NCBI RefSeq assembly: GCF_045037415.1
Contig: NZ_CP173438.1
DNA length: 64,000 nucleotides
Source: Escherichia coli
Lineage (GTDB): Bacteria; Pseudomonadota; Gammaproteobacteria; Enterobacterales; Enterobacteriaceae
Strand: one strand, 5' to 3'
Positions 18,001 to 21,000 of this stretch are shown one piece after another. Each line of letters opens with the position of its first letter. The first letter of the stretch is position 1. The position numbers are program-made.

Positions 18001-21000
18001 AACGGCATGACTGTCGGTTGCGAAAAGCTGGTCATTGCGACCGGTGGACTGTCAATGCCGGGGCTGGGCGCATCGCCGTTTGGTTATAAGATTGCCGAAC
18101 AATTCGGCCTCAACGTGCTGCCGACCCGTGCGGGTCTGGTGCCATTCACTCTGCATAAACCGTTGCTTGAAGAGTTACAGGTGCTGGCGGGCGTGGCTGT
18201 GCCTTCCGTGATTACCGCTGAAAACGGTACCGTTTTCCGTGAGAACTTACTCTTCACCCACCGCGGCTTATCTGGACCGGCGGTGTTGCAGATTTCCAGC
18301 TACTGGCAACCGGGTGAATTTGTCAGCATCAATCTGCTACCGGATGTGGACCTCGAAACCTTCCTGAATGAGCAGCGTAATGCACATCCGAATCAAAGCC
18401 TGAAAAACACGCTGGCGGTTCATCTGCCGAAGCGGTTGGTTGAACGGTTACAACAACTCGGGCAAATCCCGGATGTCTCGCTAAAACAGCTCAACGTGCG
18501 TGACCAACAGACACTGATTAGCACATTGACTGACTGGCGCGTACAACCCAACGGCACTGAAGGCTATCGCACTGCCGAAGTGACGCTCGGCGGCGTGGAC
18601 ACCAACGAACTCTCTTCACGGACGATGGAAGCGCGCAAAGTGCCTGGGCTGTACTTCATCGGCGAAGTGATGGACGTCACCGGCTGGCTGGGGGGCTATA
18701 ACTTCCAGTGGGCGTGGTCGAGTGCATGGGCTTGTGCGCAGGATTTGGTGGCAGAATAAGAAGCAAAATGCGCTCTCGATACCAGAGGGATTAACCTGAA
18801 TAAAACCAGATAAGGCGCTCAACGCCTTATCTGAAGCCTTTTTTATTATTTTTTCGCTGAACCCGCTTCTAATATAGAAACGATGGAAAACAGTGTAAAA
18901 CAAACTGCACCTAAGCCAACCAGAACTCGCGAAGGAATAAAGTAAGCCATATCGGTTTGCGCAATTTCAGCCAGGAACGCAGCAAGGAACAGACAAAACA
19001 GACAGGTAAATACCGGAATCATGGGTATTCTGTTGGCTAACGAACAGGTGCGTCGCCATACCAGCGCTAACAACCACACTTTGGAGAAAATACTGTAGCA
19101 GATCATCCCCAGGCAAATGAGAATAATGCCGGGGGCCAGGCGGGCGCTTGCATCTGAACTGATTAATACGTAGATACCAAAAATAATGGTAAGTGAGCCA
19201 AGCAAAATAACCCAATAGCACCACAGCCAATGTTCTTTCACTGAGAACGTATTCCGCGTTTGATGGACAATAGTGGCGACAAGGCCAATAAGACAAGCGC
19301 AAATTGCCGTTAACCCCATTAGTACGTGACCTGCAACATAATGTGGTGTGATATCTGCACTACGTAACAGTATGACTGACCAAATGAAACCAAAGAGAGT
19401 AAGCAGAACGGGAACGGCAATTAAACAATTACCGATTGTTGAAGAATAGGCCTGCAATGGCGTACCGTCACTCTTACTGCCCGAGGCGTTTTTGGGGATC
19501 AACAGAAAATGTCCGGAAGATGCCGCTACGGTTGATACACAAGCGGCAATCATGCCAACGCCGAAAATAACATGACCGGCGACAAATTCATCTGCCATCA
19601 CATTATTGCTTGCCAACAGTGACCATCCCCAAATCATAGTTGTAGCAGAACCGGCATAACCAATAACAGGAAATAACTTGTTGTAGAATTTATTCATGCC
19701 GTGAGTTAACTGAGATATAATAATAAATGCGGTAGTGAACAATGCCAGACATATCGCAGAAAGAGAAATCAGAACATGCCCTGCAACGAAATATTCACTT
19801 TGCCCAGAACCGGTTAATACAAACTCACCTAATGCGATGCATATTATACCCATCAGTAAAGGAATTAATTTAAACAACCATCCGATATATATATTCATTT
19901 TAAACCCCATATATATTTTCTGCTACACTTCGAAAAACATATGATTCGTCTTTTCAGTTAGTTAAATATGTCTATAAGATGCCATCAATTAAAAAAAGTA
20001 ACTTCACTATAATCGGATTTAGCGTTATGGGGATCAACTTTTAGCGGTGAGTTAATGCTATTAAATAAATATTTATCCTAAGATAAACTCTGAATTAATA
20101 TCTTTATCTTATTTTGTTGTTTTAAATGAATCTTTTAGGGACTATTTTATTAAACCCACGAGCCTTTATCATCTATCATTCTTTTCAGAATAAATTATTT
20201 TATATTCGGTATTTATTCGCACATCAGACGATAATAACGCTATGTGATAGTCATCAGGTTTCCCTGTTACGGAAACCTGTGCAACAGAATCTGTGAACCT
20301 GTACAGAATATTTTTGGAAAAAACACCAGCGAACGGAAGAACATCGCGATGTATCACAAGTTGATGGCAATCAAATAGACAACATGAATATAACTGTTAG
20401 TATTTAATTGATTTCACTTATGAGTATGCGTGTTTCATTTACGGCCAGGAATGCTGATGATGACAACATTACTACCCGTTTTCACTAAGCCTTCCCCATT
20501 GGCGCTCAATGCTCTGTGCGCTGGTCGTATTTGCCATTTCCTTCTTATCCCGGATGGAAGAATCCGCTGAACGTCGTTCGGTGGCAGTTGTAACACGTGT
20601 CGATTGCTTACAGGGATTATGGCGGGTCGATTATGGATAAGAGTAAGCGCCATCTGGCGTGGTGGGGTGTCGGGGCACTGGCGGTGGCTGCCGTCGTGGC
20701 GTGGTGGCTGTTGCGCCCGGCGGGTGTGCCGGAAGGCTTTGCTGTCAGCAATGGGCGCATTGAAGCGACGGAAGTGGATATCGCCAGCAAAATTGCCGGG
20801 CGTATCGACACCATTCTGGTGAAAGAAGGCCAGTTTGTTCGAGAAGGTGAAGTGCTGGCGAAGATGGATACTCGCGTGTTGCAGGAACAGCGACTGGAAG
20901 CCATCGCGCAAATCAAAGAAGCACAAAGTGCCGTTGCCGCCGCGCAGGCTTTGCTGGAGCAACGCCAAAGCGAAACTCGTGCCGCACAGTCGCTGGTTAA

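Follow-up and report, generated by a model that had tools for sequence, protein, structure and literature searches.

A probably ancestral control region between yhiM and yhiI of Escherichia coli, with yhiY as a candidate leader-peptide attenuator

We analysed the yhiM-yhiI interval of an Escherichia coli chromosome within a stretch of 64,000 nucleotides (nt) of contig NZ_CP173438.1. This whole stretch is called the window, and all coordinates are window positions. A preliminary description, made from the sequence, took 19899-20632 to be an AT-rich spacer between yhiM and yhiI that holds no convincing gene and replaces the yhiJ and yhiL genes of K-12. The gap lies exactly there according to our list of open reading frames (ORFs) and to the annotation of strain AZ184, which is identical to the window over 19400-21100 (1701 bases compared); the boundaries of yhiM, yhiY and yhiI in the AZ184 RefSeq record are those in the window. 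The gap is indeed AT-rich, with a GC content of 35.8% (31% for 19899-20375) against 52% for the whole window. However, it does contain a gene: yhiY is annotated there, and its product matches Pfam family PF23514 over residues 1-37 of 37 (96.2 bits, cutoff 27). The spacer is a divergent control region, with the yhiM promoter on one side and the yhiY-yhiI promoter on the other (Table 1). A conservation profile over five Escherichia species divides it into three zones. From 19899 to ~20100, 58-75% of columns are invariant; in the core, 20092-20331, the share is 20-45%, the lowest of the locus; from 20332 to 20632 it is 82-100%, above that of the neighbouring coding sequence, and reaches 95-100% at 20392-20481.

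Table 1. Features of the yhiN-rbbA segment, in window positions.
Feature	Position	Strand	Remarks
yhiN	17566-18759	+	397 amino acids (aa); ORF list
GC-rich inverted repeat	18806-18834		between convergent yhiN and yhiM; resembles a bidirectional terminator
yhiM	18846-19898	-	DUF2776, 350 aa; ORF list and RefSeq annotation of AZ184
yhiM-yhiI gap	19899-20632		intergenic; bounded by the yhiM start and the yhiI start (20633)
yhiM promoter-proximal region	19899-20091	-	~63% identical to the K-12 yhiM upstream region
19-nt block TTAGGATAAATATTTATTT, candidate GadE/RcsB site	20063-20081	-	conserved, GAD-box-like
AT-rich core	20092-20331	none	poorly conserved; without K-12 counterpart
Conserved upstream element	20332-20375	+	about -80 to -36 of the yhiY promoter
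Sigma-70 promoter of yhiY-yhiI-rbbA-yhhJ	20376-20403	+	TAGACA, 16 nt, TAGTAT; TG extended -10
Inferred yhiY 5' untranslated region (UTR)	20410-20456	+	~47 nt; start at ~20410 by K-12 homology
yhiY	20457-20570	+	37 aa; AZ184 RefSeq annotation and Pfam PF23514
Hairpin CCGCUGAAC-GUC-GUUCGGUGG	20564-20584	+	9 bp; includes the yhiY stop codon, 20568-20570
yhiI	20633-21700	+	HlyD-family membrane fusion protein; ORF list and annotation
rbbA	21697-24432	+	next after yhiI

In K-12 MG1655 the gene order is yhiI-yhiY-yhiJ-yhiL(pseudogene)-yhiM-yhiN (b3492-b3487, b4790), which agrees with the placement of yhiJ and yhiL given in the preliminary description. It had proposed an alignment with K-12 to locate the breakpoints, and this alignment shows that the two genomes are not colinear: ~494 bp in the window stand against ~4.0 kb in K-12. 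The spacer does differ, as had been claimed, but the difference is not confined to it. The divergent segment runs from the last codons of yhiN (18755) to 20375 and takes in yhiM as well as the spacer up to that point; 1.65 kb of the window correspond to 5.4 kb in K-12, and they differ throughout. Identity to K-12 is 98% up to 18754, within the last codons of yhiN, and resumes at 96% from 20403-20415. Between these breakpoints only yhiM aligns, at 80% nucleotide and 90% amino acid identity. A more sensitive comparison adds the 19899-20091 region, and also 20375-20411, which is 84% identical to the sequence past the K-12 yhiJ stop codon.

Both genomes share the flanking genes and their order, the core promoter, the leader from 20415 on, the hairpin and the start of yhiI, at 96% identity, and YhiY agrees in 35 of 37 residues. 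At the left junction, K-12 YhiN has 400 aa and a C-terminus unlike that of the window protein, and the C-terminus of O157 YhiN differs as well. The yhiN-yhiM spacer of K-12 and O157 has 315 bp of unrelated sequence, whereas that of the window has 86 bp with a GC-rich hairpin, an inverted repeat (18806-18834) common to the window, E. whittamii, MOD1-EC7003 and SCPM-O-B-8794. On the right, the yhiJ stop codon of K-12 stands 4 nt before the TAGACA -35 hexamer common to both forms. The promoter is then followed in K-12 by ~104 nt of leader absent from the window, after which near-identity returns at CACTTATGAG. This segment has no detectable similarity to the window spacer and occurs in a single copy per genome, which rules it out as a repeat element. 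The K-12 block has a GC content of 37.8%. No trace of yhiJ or yhiL came to light in the spacer: tblastn of YhiJ and YhiL against 18700-20460 gave a best E value of 0.09, and sensitive blastn with the K-12 variable block matched the yhiM upstream region and the promoter only. Likewise, a repeat search of 18700-20700 returned short two-copy matches at chance level only, with no duplications hinting at the scar of a deletion or insertion.

Comparison with other species bears on the direction of change. In a scan of one genome per species, relatives of yhiM occurred in Escherichia only. (One contig of a Terrisporobacter petrolearius assembly, 466 bp long with coverage 0.9, encodes part of a YhiM protein, with 97% identity to that of the window; contamination by E. 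coli DNA is the almost certain source.) The yhiM-yhiI gap measures 733 bp in E. albertii, 670 bp in E. whittamii, 714 bp in Escherichia sp. E1V33 and 670 bp in E69. Each of the four can be aligned with the window spacer over the full length (mean column identity 86%), and the window spacer is 77-80% identical to those of the sampled species. In these four lineages yhiM is 88-92% identical to the window gene at the nucleotide level, and yhiI and rbbA are 91-97% identical. The divergence of the window yhiM is therefore ordinary divergence between species. The K-12/O157 allele behaves otherwise: its yhiM is ~80% identical to the window gene and only ~80% identical to those of the outgroups, while yhiN, yhiI and rbbA are 95-98% identical between K-12/O157 and the window. 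Thus, the K-12/O157 yhiM falls beyond the divergence seen across the genus, even though the genes on both sides of it are nearly identical. Because it is more divergent (~80%) than the yhiM of E. albertii (~90%), K-12 represents the derived, imported state. yhiL has been predicted to be horizontally acquired and is bound by H-NS (Panyukov and Ozoline 2013).

In Salmonella, only a few tens of bases separate yhiN from the promoter, after which come the leader, a yhiY-like ORF and yhiI-rbbA-yhhJ. The yhiN-yhiI junction of Salmonella enterica (STM3588 region) shares with the window the TAGACA and TAGTAT hexamers, the leader, the hairpin and a small ORF with MMTTLLP and LIPDG..R; it differs in having neither yhiM nor the AT-rich spacer, and its small ORF has 45 aa. 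It also lacks DUF4049 genes, the family of yhiJ and yhiL. Searched against plasmid and phage collections, the spacer has no mobile-element relatives, its sole relative in them being this chromosomal locus of Salmonella. The site just left of 20376 is a recurrent insertion point, since it holds nothing in Salmonella, yhiM and the spacer in ancestral Escherichia, a diverged yhiM (yhiM') with yhiL and yhiJ in most E. coli, and an insertion sequence (IS) in strain AZ 186. There, a 768-bp IS1 with a 9-bp target duplication lies at 20355-20363, 13 bp upstream of the yhiY-yhiI -35 hexamer. The IS1 point is almost the same as the yhiJ/promoter junction of K-12-type genomes.

Among 5426 complete E. coli genomes, the short form of the window is found in 1127-1129, nearly all at 98.8% identity or more, and the long form, recognised by the K-12-type right junction, in 4278 (~79%). 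Carriers of the short form include O25b:H4, avian pathogenic E. coli (APEC) O1 and O2, NC101 and clone D i14, all of which we take to be phylogroup B2 lineages, and one O78:H4 APEC strain. In O157:H7 both DUF4049 genes are intact, and in IAI39 both are present with an IS4 between them. The preliminary description had spoken of a variable hotspot, and the short and long forms together with the IS1 of AZ 186, the IS4 of IAI39 and an IS26 truncation in 88COLEC bear this out. In 88COLEC (8233-9939), an IS26 beside sil/cop metal-resistance genes and a Tn7-like region truncates the 5' end of yhiI, and yhiY and everything upstream are gone. The yhiM of MOD1-EC7003 (9550-11053) is a mosaic, K-12-type from nt 1 to ~720 and window-type in its 3' 330 nt, with an ancestral yhiN-yhiM spacer; homologous recombination thus shuffles the two haplotypes. 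Upstream of this yhiM only a 51-codon fragment of yhiJ is left and yhiY-yhiI-rbbA are not nearby, which indicates further rearrangement at the site. We also considered the K-12 block as a classical genomic island or mobile element, but no integrase or transposase is annotated in the K-12 or O157 block, and a search with YhiJ against the plasmid collection returned only chromosome-sized records, chromosomes mislabelled as plasmids. In the searchable literature we found no published description of yhiJ/yhiL presence or absence by phylogroup, or of both haplotypes.

On the yhiM side of the spacer, the features known from K-12 can be placed by alignment. The mapped K-12 yhiM start site is an A 22 nt upstream of the GTG codon, and ATGAAA and TTCAAT have been proposed as its -35 and -10. 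TAGCAG is kept in the window, where the equivalent start falls at ~19921, and the hexamers aligned with the K-12 -35 and -10 are CTGAAA and TTCGAA. A K-12 yhiM promoter fragment is bound by RcsB/GadE, and by H-NS in vitro, and yhiM expression in K-12 is affected by GadE and GadX. The 19-nt block shows at most one change in 8/8 sequences from both yhiM haplotypes, K-12 and MOD1-EC7003 each differing by one base. At 20067-20081 it matches the GAD box TTARGAWWWWAAATA (alternative consensus TTAGGAttTTgTTATTTAAa) at 12 of 15 positions, with three mismatches. By analogy with K-12, the block is a candidate GadE/RcsB site within an AT-rich region that would be silenced by H-NS in the present strain. 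The K-12 yhiL/yhiM spacer is a listed promoter island, bound by H-NS and beside predicted acquired genes (Panyukov and Ozoline 2013). The window resembles it in having an AT-rich divergent region 5' of yhiM; however, the two spacers are ~63% identical over 190 bp and then unrelated, and H-NS binding in the window is suggested by base composition only.

On the opposite side, the yhiY-yhiI promoter was identified by a consensus scan with 9/12 hexamer matches. It is invariant in four of the five Escherichia species, E. albertii having one change, and both hexamers are kept in Salmonella. The published K-12 yhiI construct described as carrying the entire 5' UTR begins with GAGACTG, 6 nt past the homologous -10, which is consistent with the promoter assignment. 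Transcription of yhiY-yhiI would accordingly start near 20410 in the window, giving a leader of ~47 nt as opposed to 151 nt in K-12. The conserved upstream element at 20332-20375 is present in all short-form species and absent in Salmonella; K-12-type genomes have lost it and carry the 3' end of yhiJ in its place. A stretch of ~54 nt comprising part of the 5' UTR and the first yhiY codons (20418-20470) shows one difference between Escherichia and Salmonella, a conservation far above that of the adjacent genes, for which we found neither an Rfam match nor a published explanation. Folding of the whole leader (20410-20655) gave z = -0.93, with no compensatory pairs within Escherichia. A long-range helix of 11 bp between the 5' UTR (AUGCGUGUU.CA) and the yhiY-yhiI spacer was rejected: it is kept in Salmonella through one-sided transitions only, we estimate the chance of such survival at ~1 in 4, and ~0.5 complements of 9 bp are expected by chance between two stretches of 60 nt.

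Together these results make it very probable that 19899-20632 is a vertically inherited Escherichia control region between divergent units, with no deletion scar, and that it is the K-12 side that changed. A diverged copy of the segment, starting at the 3' end of yhiN, taking in yhiM', yhiL and yhiJ and ending with the promoter and ~104 nt of extra leader, would have been exchanged for the ancestral 1.65 kb through recombination in the flanking sequences, and B2-type strains, the window included, would keep the ancestral form. Several points weigh against this reading. We found no donor of the K-12-type block, and the two forms may instead be an ancient polymorphism in which both have been maintained. 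IAI39, which we presume to belong to a group close to B2, carries the long form; if this placement is right, the block spread by recombination and not in one clean split. As to the control function, the start sites and regulator sites are placed by homology with K-12, whose yhiM upstream region is only ~63% identical. GAD-box matches as good as that in the 19-nt block number 32 in the window against 19 expected, a modest excess, and the match is non-significant alone.

Among the other explanations of the two forms, it is improbable that B2-type E. coli re-imported the short form from another Escherichia species in place of an ancestral long form. The mosaic yhiM of MOD1-EC7003 shows that the haplotypes do recombine, and the long form of IAI39 would fit if that strain is close to B2. 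Yet the window yhiM (88-92%) and spacer (77-80%) are no closer to the sampled species than yhiI and rbbA (91-97%), therefore no recent donor is visible, and the long-form yhiM is diverged beyond the range of the whole genus.

We also asked of the core whether it hides an unannotated small gene or small RNA peculiar to short-form strains, and judge this highly unlikely. ORFs of 44, 56 and 62 aa lie in the core and two short blocks in it are invariant across the five species; however, the ORFs shift frame or have been lost by deletion in E. albertii, E. whittamii and E69, the core is the least conserved part of the locus with deletions in two lineages, and RefSeq annotates nothing in the core of the listed short-form genomes. 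An Rfam 15 covariance-model scan of both strands of 18600-20900 gave no match at E <= 1, and no terminator-like sites were found within the spacer. A CTGT-N8-ACAG palindrome (20292-20307) and a TGTGA half-site (20246-20250), both noticed by eye, occur at chance frequency and were set aside.

The deletion of ~4 kb (yhiJ-yhiL) favoured by the preliminary description, with the AT-rich stretch as its leftover, has next to no probability: yhiJ and yhiL are present in K-12, O157 and IAI39 and the long form is the majority form in E. coli, but four other Escherichia lineages share the full-length short spacer, homologous throughout, Salmonella lacks both genes, no protein- or DNA-level remnants of them persist in the spacer, and a simple deletion leaves the 20% difference in yhiM, with K-12 the more divergent, unexplained.

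Downstream of the promoter lies yhiY. The preliminary description reported a 39-aa ORF at 20456-20575; the ORF is real and reads MLMMTT...GRIR, although it occupies 20451-20570, so that the positions first given were 5 nt off and out of frame. It was thought to be either a gene remnant or a leader peptide. The former does not hold, as yhiY is intact and conserved as far as Salmonella. The latter is plausible, given that the literature flags yhiY as a candidate upstream ORF (uORF) and that a Rho-dependent 3' end lies downstream of it in K-12. Ribosome profiling of stalled initiation complexes revealed yhiY in K-12 and pointed to the second of three AUGs as its start, equivalent to window 20457. 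Read from this AUG, YhiY is MMTTLLPVFTKPSPLALNALCAGRICHFLLIPDGRIR, 37 aa. It differs from K-12 YhiY by R21C and R27H, with an identical initiation region, and the gap to yhiI, on the same strand, is 62 nt in both.

The ends of YhiY, MMTTLLP and LIPDG..R, are conserved from Escherichia to Salmonella. In contrast, the middle third is variable in sequence, the Salmonella ORF has 8 additional codons (45 aa), and the reading frame is shifted in E1V33. Codon changes in yhiY are mostly nonsynonymous (7-9 vs 3-4), but in codons 1-9 and in those for LIPDG even the synonymous positions are conserved, indicating constraint at the level of RNA or translation. Such a pattern, with ends kept and the middle free, is that of regulatory peptides. 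The hairpin that includes the stop codon has a free energy of -11.3 kcal/mol (z -2.4) and is kept in K-12 and in Salmonella, with one compensatory pair.

Term-seq of K-12 has located a Rho-dependent 3' end (position 3630645, Rho score 3.3); a K-12 yhiI reporter is more than 2-fold higher in the rhoR66S mutant, and yhiY-yhiI is listed as a candidate for uORF-dependent regulation (Adams et al. 2021, eLife 10:e62438). Position 3630645 corresponds to window 20590, with no indels between, 6 nt past the hairpin and 20 nt past the yhiY stop codon. The arrangement resembles the uORF Rho attenuators exemplified by mdtU-mdtJI (Adams et al. 2021) in the small ORF within the 5' UTR, the Rho-dependent 3' end less than 200 nt further on and the conserved C-terminus of the uORF peptide. 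It differs from them in that the dependence of yhiI on yhiY translation is here putative. The promoter, leader and yhiY start are conserved between genera, and more strongly than the surrounding genes; taken with the Rho results published for K-12, this recommends yhiY-yhiI as a good candidate leader-peptide attenuator. The promoter would drive yhiY-yhiI-rbbA-yhhJ, Rho would terminate prematurely just after yhiY, by homology with K-12, and translation of yhiY up to its stop codon would modulate this termination ahead of yhiI.

A role as a leader ORF, at least in part, is thus probable for yhiY. More tentatively, and with doubts that outweigh our confidence, we propose that yhiY and the stop-codon hairpin form a conserved enterobacterial leader-peptide switch that gates Rho attenuation of the YhiI-RbbA-YhhJ ATP-binding cassette exporter operon and is wired differently in the two haplotypes. 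If so, the exporter would be regulated differently in extraintestinal-pathogen lineages and in K-12-like strains: B2-type strains would keep the 47-nt leader and the -80 to -36 element, and most other E. coli would have ~104 extra nt of leader and would have lost the element. Equally tentative is the possibility that yhiY functions chiefly as a free small protein, perhaps partnering the YhiI-RbbA-YhhJ exporter, rather than as a leader ORF in cis. Intact K-12 YhiY has been detected by top-down, data-independent acquisition and parallel reaction monitoring mass spectrometry at ~1000-3000 copies per cell, so that it may also have a function of its own as a protein; the peptide also has a Pfam family of its own and conserved residues at its N- and C-termini. 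A free protein is harder to reconcile with the unconstrained middle third, the different length in Salmonella and the frameshift in E1V33, with the excess of nonsynonymous changes, with the synonymous conservation of codons 1-9 and LIPDG, and with the K-12 Rho-dependent 3' end 20 nt past the stop codon.

All the elements are annotated or have been described before in K-12; this applies to yhiY, to Rho attenuation at yhiI, to the yhiM promoter with its regulators and to the probable foreign origin of yhiL. The short configuration is annotated in more than 1000 RefSeq genomes and is ordinary accessory-genome variation. What our analysis contributes is the polarity of the difference, with K-12 derived and the B2-type form ancestral, the precise position of the junctions, and the finding that promoter, leader and uORF are conserved from one genus to another. 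Because the K-12 arrangement is derived, maps of the yhiM and yhiY-yhiI control regions drawn from K-12 are not directly transferable to B2-type strains such as ST131.

Other sites in the window also differ from K-12. At its start (1050-4109), chuA, encoding a TonB-dependent haem receptor of 660 aa, and a 342-aa ORF adjoin dctR and slp. The 342-aa product has a weak HutX-like match only; the gene in the same position is annotated chuS in IAI39, where the order dctR-chuS-chuA is also annotated, and K-12 has yhiD-hdeBA there. chuA and chuS at the window start fit a chuA-positive phylogroup. The region of K-12 that carries yhiS and IS5 (3651661-3653795) is absent at 5581-5615. At 7088-7253, ~166 bp stand against 2.3 kb of K-12 (3647896-3650175) with agrA, agrB, arsR and most of arsB; arsC and the dinQ side are retained, and the 166 bp end in a terminator-like hairpin and T run (7208-7232). 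Beyond yhhJ, a sugar-utilisation cluster of 5.8 kb (25644-31465) takes the place of K-12 rhsB-yhhH-yrhC-yhhI and encodes a class II aldolase, an FGGY kinase, the IIC and IIA components of a galactitol-type phosphotransferase system and a GntR regulator. The cluster is also present in O157 and IAI39, together with a hicAB toxin-antitoxin pair beside yhhJ; this pair is apparently absent in the window, where only 108 bp separate yhhJ from the aldolase gene. Lastly, a TacA-like antitoxin (88 aa, PF08681) and a GNAT acetyltransferase (175 aa) are encoded between livJ and panZ (52039-52839), where K-12 has 183 bp, and are probably a toxin-antitoxin module of the TacAT type.

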